DNA of 59,443 nucleotides from an uncultured Mycoplasmatota bacterium. Lineage in GTDB: Bacteria; Bacillota_I; Bacilli_A; RF39; UBA660. Each line of letters starts with the position of its first letter. Position 1 is the stretch's first letter. The notes beneath the pieces are model-generated. The model was given only the letters and a program-made list of their open reading frames with translations, was not told where the DNA came from and searched no databases. This document shows, piece by piece, positions 3,527 through 59,373 of the stretch. The stretch is from contig CANPIX010000004.1 of NCBI GenBank assembly GCA_947574215.1, forward strand, positions 1-59,443. The letters run 5' to 3'. Made by a program: the position numbers and the translations under genes.

Positions 3527-6070
3527 ATGAAACGTAGTGAAATTGACAAAGAAAAATTAAGTCCTGGCATGCGCCAATATTATGATATAAAAGAAGAATA
3601 TCCTAATGAGTTATTGTTTTTTCGTTTAGGAGATTTTTATGAACTTTTTTTTGAAGACGGAGAAATTGCTTCTCGTGAACTTGAGTTGACTTTAACTAGC
3701 AAAAACGCTGGATTAGAAGAAAGAGTTCCTATGTGTGGAGTTCCTTTTCATTCTGTAAAACCTTATATAGAAAAATTAGTAAATAAAGGATACAAAGTAG
3801 CCATTTGTGAGCAATTGGAAGAGCCTAAAAATACAAAAGGAATGGTACGTCGAGGTGTAGTTGAAGTTATTAGTAAAGGAACCATAGTGGATTCAGAACT
3901 TTTAAGTGAACACGAAAACAATTATATTGCTAGTATTTTAGATTTTTCTTTTACCTACGTTTTGTGTTATGCCGATATTTCAACAGGTAGCTTAAACATT
4001 ATGAATGTAGAGCCAAAAAAAGAAAGCTTATTAAATGAACTTTTAAATTTAAAGGTTAAAGAAGTTGTTTTAAAAGATAATTTGGATTCAGAACTTATTA
4101 GTCTTTTAAAAGAGAATTATGGAATTGAAGTAACGATATCGGATCGATTTATGGAAAATGGTTATGAAAATTTAATAGAGAGTGTAGAAGACATTCGTTT
4201 TAAAGAAGGAATCAAACATTTACTTTACTATTTAGTAATTCGAGAATTAAAAGACGTTACACATATGAAAAACGTGAAAGTAATTCATAAAGAAGATTAT
4301 TTGGAAATGGATGTTCATACAGTGCGAAATCTAGAATTAGTGGAAACGTTGCGCCTAAAAGAAAGAATGTATTCTTTAATTTGGCTATTAGATAAAACGA
4401 AAACAAGTATGGGGAGTCGAAAATTAAAAGAATTTTTAATGCATCCTTTAAAAAACAAAGAAAAAATAGAAGAACGATACGATAAAATTACAATTTTAAA
4501 TAATGAGTTTATTTTAAAAGACCAATTAAGAGACGCATTGTATGAAGTTTATGATATTGAAAGACTTTGTGGAAAGTTAGCTTGTGGTAATTTAAACGCT
4601 CGGGATTTATTACAATTAAAAGCAAGTGTAAAAGTTTTACCAACGATTAAAGAAATTGTAGAAAAACTACACTTTGATTATAAAATAGAAGAACATAAAT
4701 CTATATATGATTTATTAGAACAAGCCGTTTTTGAAAATCCACCGATTACTTTAAAAGAAGGTTTTTTAATTAAAGATGGTTATAACAATGAATTGGACGA
4801 ATTAAAAAAAATTAGAAGTGGTGGTAAAAATTTTATTGCCGAATTCGAAGCCAAGTTAAAAGAAAATACAGGAATCAAAAACTTAAAAGTGGGGTACAAC
4901 CGTGTATTCGGATATTTTATAGAAGTATCCAAAGGTCAAGTAAAAGAAGTTAACGAAAATTTAAAATGGGAAAGAAGACAAACTCTTGCCAATTGTGAAC
5001 GATACATTTCACCAGAATTAAAAGAAAAAGAAGCTTTGATCCTAAATGCTGAGGAAAAAATTGTAGAATTGGAGTACAATTTATTTAATGAAATAAAAGA
5101 AAAAATAAAAACGCAATTGATTTCTTTAAAAGATACGGCGGAAATTCTAAGTGAACTGGATGCTATTGTTGCTCTTTCTGTTTGTGCTGAGGAATACAAT
5201 TTAGTTAGACCAGAGTTAAATTTGAATCATACTATCGATATAAAAGAAGGATTTCATCCTGTTATCAAGAAAGTAGCGAACAATACCTATGTTCCAAACA
5301 ATTGTGTAATGGAAAAGAACATAGCAACACTTTTAATAACAGGTCCTAATATGAGTGGTAAGTCTACTTTTATGCGCCAACTTGCAATTATCATTATTAT
5401 GGCTCAAATAGGATCTTTTGTTCCAGCCAAAAGTGCCAACTTACCAATTATAGATAAAATATTTACAAGAATTGGTGCCAGTGATGATTTAGTAAGTGGT
5501 GAATCTACATTTATGGTAGAGATGAAAGAAGCGAAAAACGCTATTGTAAATGCTACCGAAAATAGTTTAATTCTTTTCGATGAACTTGGAAGAGGAACCG
5601 CTACATACGATGGAATGAGTCTTGCAAGAGCGATACTGGAATATGTTAATAAAAATATAAAATGTAAAACTTTATTCTCTACTCATTATCATGAATTGAC
5701 CGTTTTAGAAAAAGAAATACCAAGCATTCGAAATATTCATGTTTCTGCACATGAAGAAAATGGTACTCTTACCTTTTTACATAAAATAAAAATGGGAGCC
5801 GTTGATAAATCGTATGGTATACACGTAGCAAAACTTGCTGGAATGCCTGAAGAATTGACAACAAGAGCAAATGAAATATTAAGTCATTATGAAAGCAAAA
5901 AACAAGAACAAAATGATGACAAAGTACAATTGGAGATGGTGTTTGAAGAAACAAAAAAAGAAGATCCAATTAAAAAAATTTTAGATGATGTGGATCCTTT
6001 ATATATGACACCAATGCAAGCGATTAACAAGTTGTACGAATTAAAAGAAATTATAAAAAATAATAATTAA
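3527..6070 (+). CDS. mutS: DNA mismatch repair protein MutS
   Basis: N-terminal MRQYYDIKEEYPNELLFFRLGDFYELF, Walker A GPNMSGKST, STFMVEM and LFDELGRGT motifs. Confidence 0.95.
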   Translation: MKRSEIDKEKLSPGMRQYYDIKEEYPNELLFFRLGDFYELFFEDGEIASRELELTLTSKNAGLEERVPMCGVPFHSVKPYIEKLVNKGYKVAICEQLEEPKNTKGMVRRGVVEVISKGTIVDSELLSEHENNYIASILDFSFTYVLCYADISTGSLNIMNVEPKKESLLNELLNLKVKEVVLKDNLDSELISLLKENYGIEVTISDRFMENGYENLIESVEDIRFKEGIKHLLYYLVIRELKDVTHMKNVKVIHKEDYLEMDVHTVRNLELVETLRLKERMYSLIWLLDKTKTSMGSRKLKEFLMHPLKNKEKIEERYDKITILNNEFILKDQLRDALYEVYDIERLCGKLACGNLNARDLLQLKASVKVLPTIKEIVEKLHFDYKIEEHKSIYDLLEQAVFENPPITLKEGFLIKDGYNNELDELKKIRSGGKNFIAEFEAKLKENTGIKNLKVGYNRVFGYFIEVSKGQVKEVNENLKWERRQTLANCERYISPELKEKEALILNAEEKIVELEYNLFNEIKEKIKTQLISLKDTAEILSELDAIVALSVCAEEYNLVRPELNLNHTIDIKEGFHPVIKKVANNTYVPNNCVMEKNIATLLITGPNMSGKSTFMRQLAIIIIMAQIGSFVPAKSANLPIIDKIFTRIGASDDLVSGESTFMVEMKEAKNAIVNATENSLILFDELGRGTATYDGMSLARAILEYVNKNIKCKTLFSTHYHELTVLEKEIPSIRNIHVSAHEENGTLTFLHKIKMGAVDKSYGIHVAKLAGMPEELTTRANEILSHYESKKQEQNDDKVQLEMVFEETKKEDPIKKILDDVDPLYMTPMQAINKLYELKEIIKNNN

Positions 6071-6142: not shown

Positions 6143-6892
6143 ATGGAAACTAAATTATTATCTTATGTTGTTGAAGAATTTTTATACGATGTCGGTTTAA
6201 ATGAAAACAAAAACGCTAGAAAAACACTGCGATATTTTCTAAATAGAAACATCAATATTCTTTTTGGAAAAGAAATTTTTTCTTCTTTTGAATTAAAAAT
6301 AAGAAGAGGCGTTCAAAAAGAAGAAAACTATACAGGCAGTCAATTTGAATTTCGTCGCAGTAACTATTTGAAAATTATTTATGCTGAAAATACCTTTATT
6401 TTAGTATTTAATAAACAAGATGGAATTTTAAAACTTAGTAAATTAAATGAAATGGATGAATTTGTAATTCGATTTGATCAAGATAAAATTTGTAATAAAA
6501 TTACATATTCTTCAAGTGAAGAAATTGTTACAGAGTATCAAAACGTTGGTATAGAAAAAGAAGCTTATTTTGATTATCAAAAAGTAAGATATAGGAATGG
6601 TCAGGAAGAAATTATTACAATCCCTTATCGACTAAGACCTATTTTTATTAAACAAAGTGTGTCTAGTCTTTTTACGGTTGAAGAATTGTGTGCTTCTAAA
6701 AATAAAAGTTCATCTTCTTTTTCTATTTCTTTAAAAGAATCTATTAAAAATTTTTTTTCTTTTTCAAATCAAAAAGATATTGTACAAATACCAAGTCAAG
6801 ACAACTCCGTAGATTGTTATGATAATTTATTAGAGATTTACGCTATCTTAATAAAAGATGAAGATTCGAAAAAATTGGAGAGAAAAATTTAA
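6143..6892 (+). CDS. hypothetical protein (249 aa)
   Basis: AAGGAG (6129-6134) precedes ATG 6143. No recognisable motif. It occupies the slot where mutL is normally found. Confidence 0.45.
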   Translation: METKLLSYVVEEFLYDVGLNENKNARKTLRYFLNRNINILFGKEIFSSFELKIRRGVQKEENYTGSQFEFRRSNYLKIIYAENTFILVFNKQDGILKLSKLNEMDEFVIRFDQDKICNKITYSSSEEIVTEYQNVGIEKEAYFDYQKVRYRNGQEEIITIPYRLRPIFIKQSVSSLFTVEELCASKNKSSSSFSISLKESIKNFFSFSNQKDIVQIPSQDNSVDCYDNLLEIYAILIKDEDSKKLERKI

Positions 6893-7003
6893 AATTTCTA
6901 AACACCTAATTTTTTATTTTTTAGAAAAAAGCTTTTGGAATGAAATTTAGAGTTTATCTAGGCATTTTCTGGAACTTATGATATAATTTAACTGGTGGTT
7001 TTT

Positions 7004-48143: not shown

Positions 48144-48170
48144 CAAAAATGCTTAATTTGCTAGTTTTTT
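48140..48170. terminator. bidirectional terminator between the ABC-F gene and the convergent endolysin gene
   Basis: CTAGCAAA-aatgcttaa-TTTGCTAG perfect 8-bp stem. An A-run precedes it and T6 follows. Each arm contains the stop codon of one of the two convergent genes. Confidence 0.6.
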
Positions 48171-48997
48171 ATTTGGATGGCATCAATTTCTTTACCATAG
48201 ATTCCCGCATAACCTTGATTTGTATTATCTACTTTAGAAACCCAAGGCAACCAGTTTCCGTTTTTTAAATGAACACGGTAAATTGCATTTTTGATTTGCA
48301 CACCATCTATATTTTTAAAATTTTTTATTGAAGGCGTTTGATTGTTATTTAACCATTCGCTCCAATTCTTTTGTTCTTTAAAATGAAGTCGGTACACGAG
48401 TTTGTCAATTTTTATTCCTCCAATAGAGTTACCAAAATTTCCCGCGTATTCGTTTGTATGATTTGTCACTATAGGAAGCCATTTTTCTTTTTTATTATCG
48501 TATACTTGGTAATGAATCGAATCGTCTATTTTTTGGTTTAAATATTGATAAAAAGAAGTACAGCAAGATTTGGTCATGGATTTAGATTCATCTCCAAACC
48601 ATTTTCTTGGTTTTACATCAATGTGAGTATAATAATTATTTCCACCACATTTATATCCAATCCCAAATTGATGGCCTAAATCCTCTAAAGCAAGAACAAC
48701 AACTTTACTATCTATTTTTTTTCCAAAGGAATCCAGAAAACAAATATCACAAGCGTATCCTTGATGGGTGTTGCTGCCAGTTCCCCCAATAGTACTCTCA
48801 TAGCTTTTGCATCGATAACCACTAGAAATATTCCCTCGAACCGCTCCTATTTTTTTCATTACTTGTTCTAAAAGAAAGGGCAAAGTGTCTGCAATAAGAA
48901 TATTATGCTCTCTACCACATTTGCATTTCCATTCAGAAACGTTAAAATGTTCAGTCAATTGTGTACAATCCCTAGAATCGTATTTTATTAATTTCAT
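48161..48997 (-). CDS. endolysin-like peptidoglycan hydrolase: N-terminal M15 (Peptidase_M15_3-type) zinc peptidase plus three C-terminal ChW-like repeats
   Basis: SGYRC..Y...GG...SNTHQGYACD...THIDV (H-x6-D...H zinc site). C-terminal repeats of the form YRVHLKNGNWLPWV...GYAGIYGKEIDAIQIK. No signal peptide. 4-nt overlap with the upstream holin gene. Confidence 0.8.
   Translation of the reverse strand: MKLIKYDSRDCTQLTEHFNVSEWKCKCGREHNILIADTLPFLLEQVMKKIGAVRGNISSGYRCKSYESTIGGTGSNTHQGYACDICFLDSFGKKIDSKVVVLALEDLGHQFGIGYKCGGNNYYTHIDVKPRKWFGDESKSMTKSCCTSFYQYLNQKIDDSIHYQVYDNKKEKWLPIVTNHTNEYAGNFGNSIGGIKIDKLVYRLHFKEQKNWSEWLNNNQTPSIKNFKNIDGVQIKNAIYRVHLKNGNWLPWVSKVDNTNQGYAGIYGKEIDAIQIKN
48164..48517 (-). 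repeat. three ChW-like (clostridial hydrophobic W) cell-wall-binding repeats, at protein level
   Basis: IHYQVYDNKKEKWLPIV..GGIKIDK, VYRLHFKEQKNWSEWL..DGVQIKN and IYRVHLKNGNWLPWV..IDAIQIKN. Confidence 0.6.
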
Positions 48998-49275
48998 AAA
49001 TCCTCCTTTTGGTTTAAAATGGTTTTTAAAATGATATTGATATTGTGAAAAATGTCATAAATGCCACCCGCCGCAATTCCAGAAACAGCAATTGCCATAT
49101 TAAAATCTTTAGTAAAAAACCATTCTGTAAAAGCAACGCTGATACCAATGAGGGCATTTTGAACAGGAATCATATAATTCTCAAACCAAGGGAGCTTCTT
49201 AGCTATTTTCCCCGTAATCCAAGATATCAATAAGGTAATAGTACAAAAAAATTCAGTTGAGTTTTCTTTTATCAT
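48994..49275 (-). CDS. holin (93 aa, 2-3 TM segments, charged C-terminus)
   Basis: Hydrophobic segments FFCTITLLISWITGKIA, IPVQNALIGISVAFTEWFF and MAIAVSGIAAGGIYDIF. Tail KTILNQKEDL. Lies immediately upstream of the endolysin and overlaps it. Confidence 0.7.
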   Translation of the reverse strand: MIKENSTEFFCTITLLISWITGKIAKKLPWFENYMIPVQNALIGISVAFTEWFFTKDFNMAIAVSGIAAGGIYDIFHNINIILKTILNQKEDL

Positions 49276-49808
49276 AAATGTAGGGTGATTTCATTCATAT
49301 GATCAAAATAAGAATGAGAATAAGTCTTCATTGTTTTAAAGATTTGACTTTCTAAAAAAGAAATAGTGTCTAAGGCATGCTGGTACGAAGCAACCACAAT
49401 CCCTTTTTTTTGAACTAAAAAACTTTGTTGGATCCGATAAGAAGTAAAATTGTTTTCTAATTGAAAAAAAGTATAGGTTTTTTCATTATTTTGTTTTGTC
49501 AAAGATGATTTTATTTTTTTGTTATTTGCAAGAACATAACTATAAATTGGACCAATAAAATGAGAATGAAACAAACGAAATTCTAAAACGTCGTAACTTC
49601 TAATTTTAGGTTTTTGGTACCATTCTAATTTTATAACAACAAAAGATTCTAGAAAATTTGTAGGAATTGTATAAACAGATATTTTTTTGTATTTGGACTC
49701 AAAAAAATAAAATTCTTTGTTAAGGATTAGTTCTTCTTTAGCTTGAGTATTTTTATAGCCAACAAAAAAAACAATCAAAACCAAAAGAATTTGTATTCTT
49801 TTCACCAC
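49272..49808 (-). CDS. secreted hypothetical protein; first gene of the holin-endolysin operon
   Basis: AAGGAGG RBS upstream of an in-frame GTG at 49808. Signal peptide KRIQILLVLIVFFVGYKNTQA/KEE. ATGA overlap with the holin gene. Confidence 0.5.
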   Translation of the reverse strand: MVKRIQILLVLIVFFVGYKNTQAKEELILNKEFYFFESKYKKISVYTIPTNFLESFVVIKLEWYQKPKIRSYDVLEFRLFHSHFIGPIYSYVLANNKKIKSSLTKQNNEKTYTFFQLENNFTSYRIQQSFLVQKKGIVVASYQHALDTISFLESQIFKTMKTYSHSYFDHMNEITLHL

Positions 49809-49888
49809 AAGCACCTCCTTTCTTATTTCATCATAAAGATTGTTTTCGTTTTGTAAAAGCAACATAAAGTTCCGTCCCTAAAGCCAAT

Positions 49889-49913
49889 TGTCGAAACCTG
49901 TCGTTTCTTGTCG
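49889..49913. promoter_or_regulatory. three TGTCG motifs phased at exactly 10 bp in the divergent control region
   Basis: TTGTCGAA (49888), CTGTCGTT (49898) and TTGTCGAA (49908). This locally GC-richer patch lies inside the 217-bp intergenic region between the lysis operon and the toxin operon. Confidence 0.4.
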
Positions 49914-50025
49914 AATTAAGAATTCAATTTGTATTCTTAAACTAAGAAAGGAGAACGTATATGCAAACGTAAAATAAGAAAAATTTTTTTAGTAAAAGTC
50001 ATAAAAAGAAAGAAGAGGAGAAAAA

Positions 50026-50640
50026 ATGAATTTAGACGAATTATATTTTAAAGATAATTTTACAAAAGAGGGAGATAAGGTTGATTTAGAAATCAATAAA
50101 CTAACAGCAGAATGTATTACAAGTAAAAATAATAACTTTCATTTAGATAGTTCTGGGAACTTAAGTGTTTATTCAATTACTACAGAAAAGCCAATTGTAA
50201 CAGAAACTTTAACAGACGTACTTTATCCAATAGGTTCCATTTACATGAATGTGAATCCGGTAAGTCCAAGTGCTTTATTGGGTGGAACATGGGAACAAAT
50301 AAAAGATAGATTTTTATTAGCGTGTGGAAATAATTATATAAATGGAACAATGGGTGGAAGTGAATCTCATTTTCATGAAACAACCAATCATGAGCTTACT
50401 TACGAGGAAATGCCTTCACACAGACATATTGGGCTTTTTTGTGACAACGATATAAGATTAAACAACAATGGTGGAACAGAAAGTTATTCTTTAACTTGGA
50501 CAGGAGGAAATAAAGGACACACCGTGCCATTTGTAACAGGACCTGCCGGGGCTTCAAAAGCTCACAACCATGGAAACACGAATAACGCTAGTAGTATGCC
50601 ACCTTATTTAGCGGTCTACGTATGGAAAAGAATTGCATAA
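50026..50640 (+). CDS. phage tail-fibre/baseplate-like protein (C-terminal His-rich receptor-binding-type domain)
   Basis: GAGGAG RBS. YPIGSIYMNVNPVSPSALLGGTWEQIKDRFLL...GGSESHFHE..HELTYEEMPSHRH...AHNHGN...MPPYLAVYVWKRIA matches the conserved C-terminal module of prophage tail-fibre/baseplate proteins of Bacillota. Confidence 0.65.
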   Translation: MNLDELYFKDNFTKEGDKVDLEINKLTAECITSKNNNFHLDSSGNLSVYSITTEKPIVTETLTDVLYPIGSIYMNVNPVSPSALLGGTWEQIKDRFLLACGNNYINGTMGGSESHFHETTNHELTYEEMPSHRHIGLFCDNDIRLNNNGGTESYSLTWTGGNKGHTVPFVTGPAGASKAHNHGNTNNASSMPPYLAVYVWKRIA

Positions 50641-50650
50641 GGGTGTTTTT

Positions 50651-53600
50651 ATGAAAGAAATTATTAGTTTACGAAAACCTCGCGAAAAACATTTTTTAAA
50701 TGAAGACGGAAGTTTTACTCTATACGCTTATGATTCTGATATACATTATCTAAAAAATGGAGAATATGTTGAAATAGATAATAATTTGGTGGAACAAAAA
50801 GATTTTTTTACAACAAAAGATAATACCTTAGGCATCTATTTTGCAAATCAAAATAGTAAGGATTTTATAGTAAAAGTAGAAAAAGATACTTATAAAATTC
50901 AGTTTGACTTATTGGAAAAATATTTAGATCCTGAAATTAAAGAAAATTCCATTCTTTATAAAAATATTTTAGAAAATATTGATATAAAGTACGATATTTT
51001 TTCCAAGAAAGTAAAAGATACCATCATTCTAAAAAAGAAAAGCAACCAAGTTACGAATTTAAAATACAAAATCAAAACCAATTTACAACTTACATTAGAT
51101 AAAAATAAGATTCTTATCTTTGATAAAAACGAGCATTTGTTTACTATAGAAAAACCAACATTGAACGATAAAAATCTTACAAACTATCCTATAGAATATA
51201 CTCTTATTCCAATAGAAGATGGTTACCTTCTTGGTTTTCAAATTAACGAAGAAATTTTAATGAAAGAAGAACTGTATCCTTTAACAATTGATCCCACACT
51301 CGATATAGAAGAACAACAAAATATTTTTGACACTTATATTTATTCTGGAGATACAAACGACAATCGAGATGATAGAGATTTTGTAAGAATTGGAGTTAAC
51401 CAATCCAATCGTGTTTATAGAACACTTCTTAAATTCAATCTTCCAACTCTTCCAACCGCTTGCAATATTATCAAAGCGATCGCTTGTTTAACTTCTCACA
51501 AAGACAATTATGTAAATGTTGAAAATATGCAATTTTCTCCTATTACAGTTCACAAGATAACCGCCCCATGGAATGAAAAATACGCCAATTGGGAAAATAT
51601 GCATGACAAATACGATGAAAAAATCGAAGACTGGTTTTTAGGAGAACATTCTGTTGTTGTACCTAAAGAAGGAGGAGGTTTTCAAATAGAATTGCATTCC
51701 AATTGCTTTTCTATCACAAATTTAGTAAAAAAGTGGTATGCTGGAGAAGAAAATAATGGCGTTTTACTCAAATACGAAACAGAAATATATGAAGAAAGTA
51801 CAGAGTATGAAGCACAAGATTATATTTTTTATACCAAAAATAGTTCTATAGAAAACTCTAAACCAACTTTAATTATTCAATATCGTAATCAAAACGGATT
51901 GGAAAATTATATGTCTTATCAAACCATTAATTTAGAACAAGGAATTTCTTATATAAATAATTTAAATGGAAATGTTACGAATGTTTTTGATATCATTAAG
52001 ACATTAGATAATAAATTTCCTTTGCAATTAAATTTAATTTATAATACCAATGATGTGATTGCAAATACGAACCTAGGTTGTGGAATAGGTTTTCAATGGA
52101 ATTATTACCAAACGCTAAAAGAAGTTAATTTTGATAATGTTTCATTAGAATACTTAGATAGTGACGGAACATTACACTATTTTAGAAAAATAGATGACAA
52201 ATTAATTGACGAAGACGGATTGGGGTTTACAGTTACAAAAGAAAATGATATTTATACTTTAACAGATAAAAGTGATAATAAATTAGAATTTACAAAAATA
52301 AATCCAGTATTGAGTGCTTATTATTTAACCAAAATAATAAATTCTAATCAAGATACGATTACTATAAATTATAATAGTAACATACAAATTAGTAAGCTAT
52401 ATGATGGAGCAAACGAGGAAACCAATATTCATTATTATGGTGATGAAATTGAGATTTTAAATGGGTATACGACTACAAATATTAGGCTTGAAAATAATCG
52501 TGTTACCTCAATAAAAACTAAATATGGAACAACAAATCTTTATTATAATAATCAGAATCTTATAACAAAAATAACGGATAATAATGGTTTAAGTAAAGAA
52601 TATACTTATTTTGATTGTGTTCCTTATCGATTGAAGAAAATAACAGAAATGGGTTTAAACAACAAAGTAGGAAATTCTTTAGAATTTCAATATGAATATA
52701 ATGTTACCCGCATAAGGGATTCTAAAGGAAGAGTCAGTGCTTATACCTTTAACAATGAAGGAAATACTCTAGGGATTACCACCTTAAGAAGTAAAGACGA
52801 TTTTTTAAATGGGTATGGAATAAAACAAGAATATTATGAGAACGAAAATTTAAAAAATAAAAATAAAATTTCTTTAGAGACAAATCCTACCAAATATACA
52901 AATAATCTTATCATGGATTCTAGTTTTGAGAAAAATGTATATACAAATACATCAACCGATTTTGCAAGAACTGGAAAGAAAAGTTTAAAAATTACAGATA
53001 CCTTTTCCTATCCTTTACCGAATAGAACCAAAACGGATATCTATACGTTTAGTGGATATTTTAAAACAAAAGATGCATTTACATTATCTTTATTAGAAAA
53101 TGATCAAAAAATAAAAGAAACAAAAATTTTGCAAAGTGATGATTTTGTTAGAACTTCAATTTTCAGTAACTTAGATTCATTAAAAACTTATAAAATTCAA
53201 ATAGCACCTTTAAATGAAAATTCTGTTGTTTATATGGATGATATCCAATTAGAAGTAGGAGAAAGCTCAAACTATTATAACTTAATAGAGAATTCAGATT
53301 TTGAAAATGGTTCAAACTGTTGGGATTTTTATGGAAGTGATCGATTTGGTAATGAAGTAAATAATGGAGAAATTCTTACTTTAGAAAACGGGGTTAAAGC
53401 CTATACTTTTCATAGTAAATTATTTACAAGTTCTTCTCTAAACCAAACACTACCTATAAGTGGCAAAAAAAATGATTCTTATCGTTTATCTTTTTGGTAT
53501 AAAAATGAAGGAGTTAAAAATCCATTAGAAACTGAATTTGCCAATATGGCTTTATTAGGATTTGCCTATAAAGAAGAAGAGGATAGCGGTAGAGGTTTAC

Positions 53601-56600
53601 TTCCAATCAATTTAAATTTACATAATGATGAGTGGCAACTTTTTGAAAGCGTATTTACTGCAGAAGAAGACTACGATAATCTTTGGTTAACTTTCATTTC
53701 ACAAGATGAAGTCAACAACTTTTCTTTTACACATATTACATTAACGAAAGACTTAGAAAATAATAGTTATGGATATGATAGTGAAGGCAATTTAACTACA
53801 GCTATTGGCAAAAATAATGAAGTTACAAAATTTCAATACGATCAAAAAAATCAATTGACCAGCATATTTGAACCAAAAGGAAACCATTTTTTGTTTGAAT
53901 ACGATAATACAAATACAAATAAAGTATTACAAGGCATCTCTAAAAAAGGAATTACCAATAAAATCACATACGATGCCTATAATAATCCTATAAAAACAAG
54001 AATTATAAATAACGACACTCATACAATAGATGGAAAATCCTTTTATATACGTTTAAAAGGAACAGACAAATATATCCTTCCTAATTATAGAGAATTAAAG
54101 CTTGTTTTAGAAACACCTACTTGTAGTAATGAGAGTTGGGATTTTACAAAGGAAGAAAATACAAAGAGCTATACAATAAAAAGTAGTGTTATCCCTTTTT
54201 ATTTCGTAAAAAATTCTAACGAATTTAATTTAGCTAAAAACTTTCCTACATCCTATGAAATGATTGAAAATAAAAATGGCAGTTATACAATAAAAGAGGC
54301 AACTTCTCAGTTATGTTTGACATTAGAAAATAATCAATTTATTGGAAAACTATACGATGAAAACGACCCAAATCAACAATTTTATCTAGAACCTTTTGAA
54401 AGTAAAAAATATATAGAAACTAGCGCAGAATATACAGACGATGGAAAATTTATGAAAAGTAGAACTGATGCTTTAGATAGAACAACTGAATATGACGTTA
54501 ATCCTATAACGGGTCTTGTTAAAAATATTACAGATCCACTTAAACAAATTACAGATTATACCTACAACGATAAAGAACAAATCACGAAAATAGAAAAAAA
54601 TAATAAATCAACAAGTTATACGTATAATGAACAAAATTTACTTTCTAAAATCACTTGCAACAACAAAGAATACAACTTTACGTACGATGATTTCTTAAAC
54701 ACCAAAGAAGTTAAAATAAATAACCAAACACTAGTCACAAATGAATATGAAGAAAATAATGGTAATTTACTATCTTCAAACTATGCAAACCATACCAGCA
54801 TAAATTATACTTATGATGAATTTGATCGAGTAAAAACACTAACTAAAGGAAATAAAACCTATACCTATTTATACAACAATCAAAACGATTTAGTCAAAAT
54901 CACTTCAAATAATGAAACGTATAACTATTACTATGATTTAGCACAAAGACTTTCTAGATATGAATTTAATCATAATAGCATCGACTACGAATATGACTTA
55001 AATAATAATATTACCAAGAAGATATACAAATATAACAATACCACCAAACTTATAAATTATACCTATGATGAAGACGATTCTATTGTTAAAGTTAGCTTGG
55101 ATGATAAGGAAGTAAACTTTATTTACGATAACTTAGGAAGATTAAATAAAAAGGATATCAATGGAAACTTACCAGTAGAATACGAATATTACTCCAATGG
55201 AAATAAAACTTCCTTTGTATTAAAAAGTATGAAAATAGAAAATGATTTCTATGAATATGTTTATGATGAAGTCTATAACATCACAGATATTTATAAAAAT
55301 AAGGAATTATTAAATCATTATGAATATGATAACGAAAATGAACTTATAGAAGATAATAATTATTCATTAAATAGAACGTATAAATATACATATGACCATT
55401 CTGGAAATATATTAAAAAAAGAAGAATATGATATAAATACAAGCATCTTACTTCAAGAAAACAATTACGAATACTCTAATAGCAATTGGAAAGATCAACT
55501 AACCAAATTCAATGATGAGGAAATCACCTATGATGAAATAGGAAACCCAATTACGATTGGAAATACTTATTTATCATGGTATGGAAGAGAATTACAAAGT
55601 TTAGAAAATAACATGTCTAATATCGAATATTTCTATAACAAAGAAGGAATAAGAATTCAAAAAAATATAAATGGAGTTAAAACAAACTATTTTGTAGAGA
55701 ACTCAAATATTGTATTTGAAGAAACAAACGGAAAAGAACTATACTTTAAAAGAACTGATGAGGGAGAATTAATAGGGTTTGTTTATATGGATGAAACCTA
55801 TTATTACAAAAAGAACTATCAAGAAGATATTCTAGGTATATATGACAGTAATTATAATCTAATTTGTACCTATGAATACGATAGTTATGGTGCGATTATC
55901 AGTATCAAAGATGCTCTTGGAAATAAAGTAGAAGATGAAACTCATATAGGAAATATCAACCCATATCGATATAGAAGTTACTATTACGATAGAGAAACCA
56001 ATCTTTATTACTTAAATACTAGATACTATAATCCAGTTTGGGGTAGATTTTTGAATGCGGATGGTATCATTGGAACAAATGAGAATTATTTAGGTTATAA
56101 CCTATACGCTTATTGTGAAAATAATCCTGCTATTCGTGTAGATAGTGAAGGAGAGTTTGCTTTAACTTTAGCCTTAGGAGCAATTGCTGCAGGTGTCTTT
56201 GCTTTAGGAGCTTATTGCGGTGCAAAAGCATTACAACCTGTTGCTGGAGTAGTTACCAAAAGAATAGAGACTGTTTATGAAAGAAAAAAGGAAAAAGAAA
56301 GAGAAGATGCAAAAAAAATTGAAAAAGCAAATACAAAAACTGCAGTAAATATATATGAAAGAAATAATAAACCTTGTACAGAAGCATATTTTACAAAAGG
56401 TAAAAGAGATGTAGAAAGAGGAAAAAGATTAACGATAGAGCAATCTAAAATAGCAATAGATACAGGCAACCATGTTATGTGTGATAACCAATTTTATGCC
56501 CTACAAGTTGCTATGTATTATGGGAAAGATATGGAAGGCCCAGAAATCGATAAAAATCAATATCTTGGATATAAATACTATTATCACTATCATCCAGATA

Positions 56601-56650
56601 GAGATTCACATCGTCATATATGGTTTTTAGGGATACCGTGGAGTAAGTAA
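50651..56650 (+). CDS. Rhs/YD-repeat polymorphic toxin (about 2000 aa), leaderless. It has a DNRLRE-like N-terminal region, two CBM/galactose-binding-like modules, a ricin-like insert, the Rhs core and a variable C-terminal toxin.
   Basis: Many YD repeats (YTYNDKEQITKI, YTYNEQNLLSKI, YEYDLNNNITKK...). Rhs-associated core NPYRYRSYYYDRETNLYYLNTRYYNPVWGRFLNADG...NNPAIRVDSEGE. AAGGGTG RBS upstream of ATG 50651. No hydrophobic N-terminal segment. Confidence 0.9.
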   Translation: MKEIISLRKPREKHFLNEDGSFTLYAYDSDIHYLKNGEYVEIDNNLVEQKDFFTTKDNTLGIYFANQNSKDFIVKVEKDTYKIQFDLLEKYLDPEIKENSILYKNILENIDIKYDIFSKKVKDTIILKKKSNQVTNLKYKIKTNLQLTLDKNKILIFDKNEHLFTIEKPTLNDKNLTNYPIEYTLIPIEDGYLLGFQINEEILMKEELYPLTIDPTLDIEEQQNIFDTYIYSGDTNDNRDDRDFVRIGVNQSNRVYRTLLKFNLPTLPTACNIIKAIACLTSHKDNYVNVENMQFSPITVHKITAPWNEKYANWENMHDKYDEKIEDWFLGEHSVVVPKEGGGFQIELHSNCFSITNLVKKWYAGEENNGVLLKYETEIYEESTEYEAQDYIFYTKNSSIENSKPTLIIQYRNQNGLENYMSYQTINLEQGISYINNLNGNVTNVFDIIKTLDNKFPLQLNLIYNTNDVIANTNLGCGIGFQWNYYQTLKEVNFDNVSLEYLDSDGTLHYFRKIDDKLIDEDGLGFTVTKENDIYTLTDKSDNKLEFTKINPVLSAYYLTKIINSNQDTITINYNSNIQISKLYDGANEETNIHYYGDEIEILNGYTTTNIRLENNRVTSIKTKYGTTNLYYNNQNLITKITDNNGLSKEYTYFDCVPYRLKKITEMGLNNKVGNSLEFQYEYNVTRIRDSKGRVSAYTFNNEGNTLGITTLRSKDDFLNGYGIKQEYYENENLKNKNKISLETNPTKYTNNLIMDSSFEKNVYTNTSTDFARTGKKSLKITDTFSYPLPNRTKTDIYTFSGYFKTKDAFTLSLLENDQKIKETKILQSDDFVRTSIFSNLDSLKTYKIQIAPLNENSVVYMDDIQLEVGESSNYYNLIENSDFENGSNCWDFYGSDRFGNEVNNGEILTLENGVKAYTFHSKLFTSSSLNQTLPISGKKNDSYRLSFWYKNEGVKNPLETEFANMALLGFAYKEEEDSGRGLLPINLNLHNDEWQLFESVFTAEEDYDNLWLTFISQDEVNNFSFTHITLTKDLENNSYGYDSEGNLTTAIGKNNEVTKFQYDQKNQLTSIFEPKGNHFLFEYDNTNTNKVLQGISKKGITNKITYDAYNNPIKTRIINNDTHTIDGKSFYIRLKGTDKYILPNYRELKLVLETPTCSNESWDFTKEENTKSYTIKSSVIPFYFVKNSNEFNLAKNFPTSYEMIENKNGSYTIKEATSQLCLTLENNQFIGKLYDENDPNQQFYLEPFESKKYIETSAEYTDDGKFMKSRTDALDRTTEYDVNPITGLVKNITDPLKQITDYTYNDKEQITKIEKNNKSTSYTYNEQNLLSKITCNNKEYNFTYDDFLNTKEVKINNQTLVTNEYEENNGNLLSSNYANHTSINYTYDEFDRVKTLTKGNKTYTYLYNNQNDLVKITSNNETYNYYYDLAQRLSRYEFNHNSIDYEYDLNNNITKKIYKYNNTTKLINYTYDEDDSIVKVSLDDKEVNFIYDNLGRLNKKDINGNLPVEYEYYSNGNKTSFVLKSMKIENDFYEYVYDEVYNITDIYKNKELLNHYEYDNENELIEDNNYSLNRTYKYTYDHSGNILKKEEYDINTSILLQENNYEYSNSNWKDQLTKFNDEEITYDEIGNPITIGNTYLSWYGRELQSLENNMSNIEYFYNKEGIRIQKNINGVKTNYFVENSNIVFEETNGKELYFKRTDEGELIGFVYMDETYYYKKNYQEDILGIYDSNYNLICTYEYDSYGAIISIKDALGNKVEDETHIGNINPYRYRSYYYDRETNLYYLNTRYYNPVWGRFLNADGIIGTNENYLGYNLYAYCENNPAIRVDSEGEFALTLALGAIAAGVFALGAYCGAKALQPVAGVVTKRIETVYERKKEKEREDAKKIEKANTKTAVNIYERNNKPCTEAYFTKGKRDVERGKRLTIEQSKIAIDTGNHVMCDNQFYALQVAMYYGKDMEGPEIDKNQYLGYKYYYHYHPDRDSHRHIWFLGIPWSK
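56156..56647 (+). other. variable C-terminal toxin module of the Rhs protein (164 aa) downstream of the core cleavage motif
   Basis: Begins right after ...VDSEGE. Gly/Ala-rich hydrophobic helix FALTLALGAIAAGVFALGAYCGA, then a Lys/Glu linker, then a globular part ending in YYYHYHPDRDSHRHIWFLGIPWSK. Confidence 0.6.
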
Positions 56651-56676: not shown

Positions 56677-57411
56677 ATGCAAATAAAAAGAATGTCAAAA
56701 GAAGCATATCCAAAGTTTATAGATTATGTTTTTCAAACTTGTGATGTAGTCGAATTAAAAAAATATTCATCTGGGCATAACCATCAAAATCAACGAATAG
56801 TCAATATTATGTTGAGTGATTTACCGAAGAATTTAAATATTTCCTGTAAAAAAAAATGTATAGACTTACTATATATAAAATTTAAAAATAATCCTTTTAT
56901 ATTTGACCAAGATTATAAAAAATCATATGAAACGAATGATATGGGTTTAGATAGCAAAACCTTTCAAAAATTGGCGCAAAAAAGAAGAAAATCACTTATA
57001 AAAGGTAGTATTTATAATTATATCCATAATAAAGAAACCAATAACTTTTTATTAAAAAATAAATCTGATCTTATTTACGCCAGAGAAGATATTCATAAAA
57101 TAGGTGATATGGGTAATTCATACTATTTCTTCAAATTAAGTAAAAATATAAAACAAGAAATCCAAAATAAAAATTCTATATTTGCTTGGCGCTTTCCGAT
57201 CTCACTCGAAGATATATGCTTTTTTAATAAAAATGGTCTTTGTTGGCTTTGGTCCACTTCGCATGAAGAAATGTATGCAATATGTTTTCAAGAAGGTGAA
57301 GAAAAAGAATATGAATATTTAAAATCAATAGGAATCGAATTTGTAGAAGAAGAGTTTACACCAACTCCGAAAGAATATTTATTTTATTTAGAAGATGACT
57401 TAAAATACTAG
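56677..57411 (+). CDS. putative cognate immunity protein (244 aa, soluble), copy 1
   Basis: Starts 26 nt after the Rhs stop, with an AAAGGA RBS. No TM or signal peptide. The call rests on position. Confidence 0.55.
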   Translation: MQIKRMSKEAYPKFIDYVFQTCDVVELKKYSSGHNHQNQRIVNIMLSDLPKNLNISCKKKCIDLLYIKFKNNPFIFDQDYKKSYETNDMGLDSKTFQKLAQKRRKSLIKGSIYNYIHNKETNNFLLKNKSDLIYAREDIHKIGDMGNSYYFFKLSKNIKQEIQNKNSIFAWRFPISLEDICFFNKNGLCWLWSTSHEEMYAICFQEGEEKEYEYLKSIGIEFVEEEFTPTPKEYLFYLEDDLKY

Positions 57412-57581: not shown

Positions 57582-58316
57582 ATGCAAATAAAAAGAATGT
57601 CAAAAGAAGCGTATCCAAAGTTTATAGATTATGTTTTTCAAACTTGTGATGTAGTCAGATTAAAAAAATATTCATCTGGGCATAACCATCAAAATCAACG
57701 AATAGTCAATATTATGTTGAGTGATTTACCGAAGAATTTAAATATTTCCTGTAAAAAAAAATGTATAGACTTACTATATATAAAATTTAAAAATAATCCT
57801 TTTATATTTGACCAAGATTATAAAAAATCATATGAAACGAATGATATGGGTTTAGATAGCAAAACCTTTCAAAAATTGGCGCAAAAAAGAAGAAAATCAC
57901 TTATAAAAGGTAGTATTTATAATTATATCCATAATAAAGAAACCAATAACTTTTTATTAAAAAATAAATCTGATCTTATTTACGCCAGAGAAGATATTCA
58001 TAAAATAGGTGATATGGGTAATTCATACTATTTCTTCAAATTAAGTAAAAATATAAAACAAGAAATCCAAAATAAAAATTCTATATTTGCTTGGCGCTTT
58101 CCGATCTCACTCGAAGATATATGCTTTTTTAATAAAAATGGTCTTTGTTGGCTTTGGTCCACTTCGCATGAAGAAATGTATGAAATATGTTTTCAAGAAA
58201 GTGAAGAAAAAGAATACGAATATTTAAAATCAATAGGAATCAAATTTGTAGAAGAAGAGTTTACACCGACTCCGAAAGAATATTTATATTCTTTAGAAGA
58301 TGACTTAAAATATTAG
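57582..58316 (+). CDS. putative immunity protein, copy 2 (6 substitutions in 244 aa versus copy 1)
   Basis: Translation is identical to copy 1 except E26R and five changes within residues 201-237. Confidence 0.55.
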   Translation: MQIKRMSKEAYPKFIDYVFQTCDVVRLKKYSSGHNHQNQRIVNIMLSDLPKNLNISCKKKCIDLLYIKFKNNPFIFDQDYKKSYETNDMGLDSKTFQKLAQKRRKSLIKGSIYNYIHNKETNNFLLKNKSDLIYAREDIHKIGDMGNSYYFFKLSKNIKQEIQNKNSIFAWRFPISLEDICFFNKNGLCWLWSTSHEEMYEICFQESEEKEYEYLKSIGIKFVEEEFTPTPKEYLYSLEDDLKY

Positions 58317-58890: not shown

Positions 58891-59373
58891 ATGAAAAAAA
58901 AGTTTATTATAATTATTTTGAGCATAATAAGTTGTGTGATGATTATAGGAGTACTTTTTATGTATTTATCTAGCATTAATTTTGCTTATAAAATTAACTG
59001 GAATATTGATATTCCAAATCCCAAAAAAGTAATTTCTAAATATAATAATACCGGATTTCAATATGGTTTATATTTAGATATATTTCATTATAATCAAAGA
59101 GAAATAATGCAACTTATATCAAAATTAAATTTTCAAAAAATAGACAGATCAGAAAAACTAAAGCTAACTCAAAAATACAATGAATTTATGAATAATCTTG
59201 AAGAAGAACTTCAAAAAAAATTTGATGATGTAATTCAACCAGAAACCAATTTTAACAACAATAACTACTATGTTTATTTGGAAAAAAATAGTAATAAATC
59301 AAACTACTGTTTATTATTAATGGTTCTCGATGTTATTAATAATAAAGTTTATGTTATACAATACTTTAAATAA
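58891..59373 (+). CDS. membrane-anchored hypothetical protein (160 aa)
   Basis: GAAGAAGG upstream. N-terminal TM FIIIILSIISCVMIIGVLFMYL. No motif recognised. Confidence 0.45.
   Translation: MKKKFIIIILSIISCVMIIGVLFMYLSSINFAYKINWNIDIPNPKKVISKYNNTGFQYGLYLDIFHYNQREIMQLISKLNFQKIDRSEKLKLTQKYNEFMNNLEEELQKKFDDVIQPETNFNNNNYYVYLEKNSNKSNYCLLLMVLDVINNKVYVIQYFK

Follow-up and report, generated by a model that had tools for sequence, protein, structure and literature searches.

A conserved tip with a predicted three-histidine toxin domain on an Rhs protein of an uncultured Mycoplasmatota bacterium

The window analysed here, a stretch of 59,443 nucleotides from an uncultured Mycoplasmatota bacterium (positions 1 to 59,443 of contig CANPIX010000004.1, assembly GCA_947574215.1), harbours on its plus strand a gene for an Rhs protein of 2005 amino acids (aa), a single open reading frame (ORF) located at 50633-56650 with its stop codon at 56648-56650. 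The last 164 residues of this protein constitute a conserved predicted toxin cassette, in which a helix that seeks the membrane is joined by a charged linker to a small domain with three histidines. This globular domain is the founding member of a family that had no name before. A homologue of the gene that follows the Rhs gene in the window adjoins the toxin in nearly every locus, and its 244-aa product is most readily taken for the cognate immunity protein of the tip.

Layout and conservation of the tip

The delivery scaffold of the Rhs protein (50633..56155, plus strand) comprises a DNRLRE domain, YD/RHS repeats and the Rhs-associated core. It was recognised by the NCBIfam models for DNRLRE_dom (residues 233-415), RHS_core and YD repeats and by the Pfam model RHS_repeat, while Rhs_assc_core (TIGR03696, NCBIfam) covers residues 1749-1840 (E 1e-16). 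The core-end motif NNPAIRVDSEGE (56120-56155), a presumed autoproteolysis site of the PxxxxDxxG type, ends at residue 1841, and the tip begins directly C-terminal to it at residue 1842 (56156-56647). The original prediction had placed a 164-aa tip beyond the end of the Rhs core, in agreement with both the translation and the limits of TIGR03696. The tip bears the marks of Rhs cargo: it lies directly behind a TIGR03696 core with a cleavage-type motif, the tips carried by the conserved scaffold are swappable, and an immunity homologue adjoins it.

Three parts can be distinguished in the tip. Residues 1-23 (56156..56224), FALTLALGAIAAGVFALGAYCGA, form a hydrophobic helix with a Kyte-Doolittle mean of 2.12 over 19 residues, which is of transmembrane (TM) grade, and this helix is proposed to serve as a membrane-entry (pre-toxin) element. 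It is followed by a polar, Lys/Glu-rich and net-positive linker (YERKKEKEREDAKKIEKANTK, residues 24-71, 56225..56368) and by the globular 93-aa His-triad predicted toxin domain (residues 72-164, 56369..56647), which was delimited with the aid of a structural model and the family alignment. The segments KPCTEAYF, GNHVMCDNQFYALQVAMYYG and YYYHYHPDRDSHRHIWFLGIPWSK, as well as the helix and the Lys/Glu linker quoted in the original prediction, were all found in the translated tip.

A search restricted to the tip led to the identification of five further full-length Rhs proteins (~2030-2070 aa) that end alike, with 34-51% identity, and an exhaustive phmmer search of 1.84 billion protein representatives yielded 58 matching cluster representatives with E-values down to 2e-29. 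All the matches retrieved by both protein-collection searches are Rhs C-termini or orphan Rhs fragments, including two seemingly stand-alone genes which proved to be orphan Rhs fragments when the upstream DNA was read. About 77 distinct relatives are known in total, nearly all of them Rhs C-termini of uncultured gut Bacillota. Given the 58 representatives and the three histidines invariant across 77 distinct members, the family match is far beyond chance.

The conservation of individual residues was assessed by column statistics over the 77 distinct members, with denominators that vary by column (residues are numbered from the start of the tip). The three histidines make up an HYH-x7-H motif (56585..56617) and are found in 76/76 (H144, 56585-56587), 75/76 (H146, 56591-56593) and 74/75 (H154, 56615-56617) members. 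Further conserved columns are A115 (75/77), C109 (69/76; 56480-56482), Y142 (69/76), W156 (66/75; 56621-56623), E130 (62/77; 56543-56545) and G89 (59/65). The cysteine of KPCTEA (C74) is confined to the low-GC clade, distant members having YWEA at this place. Since Thr or Ala stands in place of C109 in 7/76 members, an entire subclade among them, as well as in the homologues from Acholeplasma described below, a catalytic role of this residue is unlikely. Position 132 is occupied by Asp or His in most members (His in 26/77), and in the so-called DPPH subclade the GPEID segment is replaced, yet an acidic residue and a His are kept. Variation of this kind is typical of metal ligands.

The tip was detected in 14 of 401 genomes of the host's order (11 of 145 genera), all of 1.0-1.6 Mb, and in four of 400 genomes of a phylum-wide sample. 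The related loci are labelled by NCBI as metagenome-assembled genomes (MAGs) of uncultured Bacillota, Bacilli, Bacillales or Tenericutes, and a tblastn search of plasmid and phage collections did not reveal the domain. A shortened orphan tip with an immunity homologue upstream is present on contig CAYTKH010000003.1 (L011), which belongs to a MAG labelled as Muribaculaceae (Bacteroidota); possibly this contig was mis-binned and does not represent a true cross-phylum occurrence. A hint of a PHP domain in another relative (P0099) was traced to a chimeric gene call, in which a DNA-polymerase PHP fragment is joined to an orphan tip remnant.

In agreement with the original prediction, which considered the tip unassignable, it gave zero matches in Pfam, NCBIfam, PHROGs and PADLOC. 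Likewise, 50 aligned relatives gave no Pfam match at E<=1, Tox- and Ntox models included, and among PDB sequences nothing was found below E 0.28, either by single sequence or by family profile. Tip residues 60-164 were modelled with AlphaFold2 (AF2) from the 50-sequence family alignment A2, and the model is confident (predicted local distance difference test score, pLDDT, 91.6; predicted TM-score, pTM, 0.83), with low values at residues 60-69 (mean pLDDT 54). The globular domain of the model has the element order beta-beta-alpha-beta-alpha-beta-beta-beta, and HYH and H-IWF are located on the last two consecutive C-terminal strands. Foldseek showed no neighbour of the domain in the PDB (best E 0.44, the CorA N-terminal domain, TM-score 0.39) or in BFVD (best E 0.57). 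Hence neither the profiles nor the model combined with Foldseek produced a confident match to a characterised toxin family.

Several known families were considered and rejected. In the case of the HNH/EndoVII toxins (AHH, GHH, SHH, LHH, WHH), neither the tip nor the 50 relatives gave a Pfam match, and the chain ends on a strand 10 residues past the last His with no following helix, so a beta-beta-alpha-metal finger is absent. The JAMM signature of JAB/MPN proteins (Tox-JAB; E...HxH-x7-S-xx-D) is not matched by HYHPDRDSHRH, which has His in the place of Ser, the SxxD helix is missing, and no JAB match was obtained from Pfam or Foldseek. The deaminase, ART, EndoU and BECR RNase families were dismissed on the basis of no Pfam match at E<=1 in 50 members and no Foldseek match with E below 0.4. 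The ideas of HIT and LAS proteins were dropped against sequence, secondary structure and conservation. The PT1-PT9 toxins, for which solved PT1 and PT7 complexes have been described by Nachmias et al. (10.1101/2021.10.19.465003), were rejected as relatives, since the PDB search gave no match.

The His-triad domain is not restricted to Rhs proteins. Weak matches in two complete Acholeplasmataceae genomes led to proteins of 402 and 418 aa, one of them WP_026389951.1 of Haploplasma axanthum, and a profile-profile comparison supports their homology to the tip over the full domain (hhalign probability 93.7%, E 2e-7), with an insert of ~35 aa and with C109 exchanged for Thr or Ala. They begin with a signal/lipoprotein anchor, after which come an N-terminal domain (~150 aa), a double hydrophobic module that is conserved, a linker and finally the toxin domain; no part of this scaffold has a Pfam match. 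Acholeplasmataceae are wall-less bacteria, and the scaffold was found in four of 121 genomes of this family (L056:1486-2742, L057:1486-2694 and L061:1006-2277, all on the minus strand, and L060:1483-2601 on the plus strand). The His-triad domain is present in two of these; the other two have only the N-terminal 250 residues in common with them and end in other C-termini. The presence of the domain on two unrelated scaffolds marks it as a cassette, as is classically seen with polymorphic toxin domains, and on both scaffolds it is preceded by a membrane element. A small unrelated gene lies 3' of each Acholeplasmataceae scaffold gene, and the downstream genes in Acholeplasma have no relation to the immunity family described below (hhalign probability 0.2%).

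The helix and the linker behave differently from the globular domain. In the 22 members whose core end could be identified, the maximum Kyte-Doolittle value of the helix has a median of 2.0. The linker (median 52 aa) shows no sequence conservation and carries a net positive charge in 16/22. The helix had been described as glycine-zipper-like, and small-xxx-small motifs are indeed present, five of them in the helix of the window; across the family, however, their number ranges from 0 to 7, so that the hydrophobicity is conserved and the zipper pattern is not. In sister Rhs proteins encoded by members of the same bacterial family, the core ends are 48-63% identical, but the tips are unrelated. 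One tip matches Ntox44 (E 2e-18) and another is GIY-YIG-like, at an E of 7e-4 that falls short of the cut-off; eight of ten lack a Pfam match. At the start of every sister tip lies a helix, either hydrophobic or cationic and amphipathic, or else some other hydrophobic segment of helix-like character. In the loci L030-L051 the start is a hydrophobic helix of TM grade or, in most of the remaining tips, a cationic amphipathic helix resembling antimicrobial peptides, e.g. WPKWIKKLGKLAKKVWNKF, and some of the sister helices have an '...A(L/I)xPV...' continuation in common with the helix of the window. Since similar helices precede unrelated sister tips, the helix probably serves entry in a generic way, as a pre-toxin module of this Rhs lineage and not as the toxic principle. 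The original prediction, too, had suggested membrane entry and not killing as a possible role of the helix, and it is supported by the location of the invariant residues in the globular domain, by the retention of hydrophobicity alone in the helix and by like helices before the Ntox44 and GIY-YIG-like tips.

The immunity gene and its array

The Rhs gene is directly followed on the plus strand by a gene for a protein of 244 aa (56677..57411), and the ORF list contains a near-identical tandem copy, also of 244 aa (57582..58316, plus strand). The N-terminal half of the protein is basic, and its C-terminal domain is very acidic (isoelectric point, pI, 4.6). The downstream protein had been regarded as soluble and immunity-like, and both attributes hold: no TM segment was detected (maximum Kyte-Doolittle value 0.64), and homologues lie directly 3' of the toxin elsewhere. 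Such a homologue adjoins the toxin in all 11 of the 11 loci from relatives' genomes (L019-L029), in L001, L003-L009 and L012, on the contigs of P0003 and P0004, at loci detected in species genomes, and in the distant clades represented by L052 (Cys-less) and L054 (YWTA). The exception is the orphan locus L053, which has a different downstream gene. This linkage, observed in nearly every locus, points to the 244-aa gene as the cognate immunity gene of the tip.

The immunity family consists of 21 clusters, none of which is named or has a Pfam match, and its invariant residues (W171, P174, H196, E197, Y212, L215, G219) are all located within the C-terminal domain. The AF2 model of the protein (pLDDT 91.9) has no neighbour in the PDB according to Foldseek, and the search of PDB sequences with the immunity profile returned nothing. 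GvpF, the best Foldseek match, was rejected as a structural match (E 0.03, TM-score 0.21).

The host genome (1.11 Mb in 40 contigs) contains one copy of the toxin vs at least five immunity paralogues, three of the latter on contig C27 (L018:1-7000), at 1504-2158 (split), 4849-5592 and 6230-6964. Apart from these paralogues, the array on C27 includes small TM proteins, fragments of decayed Rhs cores and the remnant of an orphan tip with a frameshift (...DYSHPEHHPELENSHVHDW...), which is followed by an ORF of 119 aa. This contig begins within an immunity gene, and repeats probably broke the assembly beside the end of the window. After the immunity array, the window encodes an N-terminally anchored protein of 160 aa (58891-59373) with a paralogue on C27 (L018:3206-3724); both carry NWNI(D/E)IPNP(K/N)KVI, which suggests a repeated module of the array. 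The genome amounts to only ~1.11 Mb (92% complete), yet ~6 kb of it are spent on one Rhs toxin, in addition to the immunity paralogues.

Proposed mode of action and competing explanations

Taken together, these data allow the tip to be read as an Rhs cargo that acts in the cytoplasm by means of the mononuclear metal site of a small hydrolase, a phosphodiesterase or nuclease being the likeliest; about an even chance may be given to this joint reading. The Rhs cage would cut itself after ...VDSEGE, as do members of its family, and by means of its N-terminal helix and its net-positive linker the freed 164-aa fragment would insert into and traverse the target membrane. The 93-aa globular domain would then act in the target cytoplasm through a putative active site formed by H144-x-H146 on one strand, H154 at the opening of the next strand and the acidic E130; the Asp or His at position 132 would most likely contribute to the metal site as well. 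The producer would be shielded by the cytoplasmic 244-aa protein, whose acidic and strongly conserved C-terminal domain probably masks the site of the histidines. A cytoplasmic target is suggested by the solubility of the immunity protein and by the sister tips behind comparable helices, which are predicted nucleases; hydrolytic or metal chemistry is suggested by the residue pattern and the base rates for such toxins, and a phosphodiester substrate by the base rate together with the acidic immunity domain, the pI of which (4.6) may be set against the family median of 8.5 for the toxin core. Arrangements with HxH on one strand and His on its neighbour are known from carbonic anhydrase-like sites, or from three-His metal sites such as those of DNase colicins.

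Several points weigh against this interpretation. The toxin core is only mildly basic, and no homology or fold match from the profile libraries, the PDB or BFVD backs any particular chemistry. Self-cleavage at VDSEGE is assumed from family homology, the placement of H144, H146, H154 and W156 on the same side of the sheet would follow from strand register in the model, and the helix could instead aid packaging inside the Rhs cage. Finally, a pattern of three His plus Glu equally fits metal-independent acid-base RNases. An enzyme of this sort, with two His as general acid and base and E130 assisting (RNase T1/barnase or EndoU chemistry), would cut tRNA or rRNA in the target cytoplasm, and it is unlikely, though first among the rivals. 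The invariant His, the conserved Glu and the aromatic residues Y141, Y142 and W156 within a domain of ~93 aa are consistent with it, as are the cytoplasmic, acidic immunity protein and the sister tip Ntox44, a predicted RNase; moreover, RNases are the commonest cargo of Gram-positive Rhs/WapA proteins (PMC12704120). However, neither a BECR, T1 or EndoU profile match nor a Foldseek neighbour was found, the order of elements is unlike the alpha plus four-strand BECR core, and the Asp/His interchange at position 132 is more reminiscent of a metal ligand. It seems rather doubtful that the HxH...H domain is a metalloenzyme of new fold with a chemistry unseen in interbacterial toxins and a substrate other than nucleic acid or NAD, which would be delivered across a Gram-positive membrane by a self-inserting helix and a cationic linker with no injector or protein receptor, and from a lipoprotein-anchored scaffold in Acholeplasma. 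More doubtful still is a VOC-like metalloenzyme of the S8-VOC1 type, tethered by the helix near the membrane, with a small molecule or a metabolite linked to the membrane as its substrate in place of nucleic acid. The last five elements of the domain (beta-alpha-beta-beta-beta after an N-terminal extension) do follow the order of the S8-VOC1 module, the 26/77 members with His at position 132 possess a fourth His, a TM element always precedes the domain, on two scaffolds, and the VOC proteins 2rk9 and 3rmu are among the weak Foldseek matches. These matches, however, are insignificant (E 2.3-2.7, TM-score about 0.25), and hhalign against a Glyoxalase/VOC alignment of 23 Bacilli proteins gave a probability of 0.1%.

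The remaining explanations concern the nature of the killing element itself. The very small size of the domain would suit a binder without catalytic activity, stabilised by zinc, that poisons an essential target in a stoichiometric manner, and C109, H144, H146 and H154 could form a structural zinc site. Nevertheless, the Cys is dispensable in an entire subclade, and the conserved Glu and aromatics beside the His suggest an open active site; as reportedly pointed out by Zhang et al. in 2012, most polymorphic toxin tips are enzymes, so that a binder appears improbable. Killing by the helix itself, through a pore or membrane depolarisation with the globular domain as an accessory, is a highly improbable alternative, even though the helix is of TM grade, has five small-xxx-small motifs, and glycine-zipper pore toxins occur among the Gram-positive LXG toxins. 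The immunity protein lacks a TM segment, similar helices stand before several unrelated tips, and the sequence and zipper of the helix are not conserved, as opposed to the invariant residues in the globular domain. The least probable explanation is a papain-like or NlpC/P60-type hydrolase of the Cys-His-His kind, in which C109 would stand at the start of helix 2. In the AF2 model C109 does lie at a strand-to-helix junction with the His on later strands, and the Cys-to-His spacing is comparable to that of NlpC/P60 triads, but the replacement of this Cys by Ala or Thr, both in the subclade and in the Acholeplasma homologues, speaks against it. Furthermore, Pfam gave no match to NlpC/P60, CHAP or Tox-PL, and no such fold was seen among the Foldseek matches listed; NlpC/P60 and papain-like relatives were rejected accordingly.

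Genes with possible functions in release were observed near the Rhs genes. A gene with a Gp10_C-like product (phage baseplate/tail-fibre C-terminal) is located upstream of the Rhs gene in the window (48161-50640) and in relatives, and the same locus of the window contains an M15_3 cell-wall hydrolase and a holin on the minus strand. Meanwhile, at L001:4352-13446 and L003:4374-16147 a CW_7/LysM endolysin and a holin lie downstream of the Rhs gene. This conserved association of Gp10_C-like, holin and hydrolase genes suggests a lysis-type release of the leaderless Rhs protein.

Significance and comparison with known systems

The tip family is a new cargo on the familiar Rhs weapon, and as new tips on Rhs scaffolds are common, it is no surprise in kind. 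With toxin and immunity folds that match nothing else and an entry helix that recurs, it is of moderate interest, being a new family within a kind of system that is well known. Should its activity be confirmed, the polymorphic-toxin repertoire would be enlarged by one new fold each for toxin and immunity protein, both from uncultured gut Bacilli with small genomes, a group in which almost nothing is known on interbacterial antagonism. In addition, the layout of helix, linker and toxin, found before unrelated tips and on two scaffolds, would provide a handle on how Rhs/WapA-type toxins cross the Gram-positive cytoplasmic membrane.

The H-N-H DNase colicins E7 and E9 resemble the system described here in having a small bacteriocin domain with three His and an acidic cytoplasmic immunity protein. 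The metal held by the three histidines of these colicins binds the scissile phosphate. Unlike in the colicins, however, there is no beta-beta-alpha-Me finger (no helix past the His hairpin) and no HNH profile in the tip, and the immunity protein is unrelated. As to the entry element, prePAAR/TM helices (Rhs proteins of type VI secretion systems (T6SS), Tse6), the cytoplasm-entry domains of CdiA-CT and the cationic ABP toxins likewise have a hydrophobic or cationic segment beside the toxin that is proposed to carry it across a membrane. These elements differ from the single helix found here right after the presumed Rhs cleavage site, in a host without T6SS or contact-dependent inhibition (CDI) system.

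S8-VOC1 of the S8-PTS/ABP systems (Li, Tan & Zhang 2022, PMC9424270; review PMC13460014) is also a small uncharacterised polymorphic-toxin domain of Gram-positive bacteria, the conserved residues of which are four His on a beta-sheet surface, though it could be compared by description only. The domain of the window is carried by an Rhs and not by a BetaH/S8 scaffold, and shows no similarity to VOC/Glyoxalase profiles and no significant structural match; the relationship remains a lead. The WapA-type Rhs toxins (WapA of B. subtilis; WapA-CT1 of S. suis, PMC12704120) differ in several respects, since the Rhs protein described here has no Sec signal, LysM domain or PT-TG pre-toxin, the helix and the charged linker being present instead, its toxin domain is unrelated to the tRNases and DNases of WapA, and its locus contains the Gp10_C-like gene and a holin/endolysin pair. 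Nevertheless, both have a giant YD/Rhs cage with DNRLRE and carry a swappable toxin behind the core. In both, the immunity gene comes directly after the toxin gene, and other parts of the genome contain orphan fragments as well as additional immunity genes.

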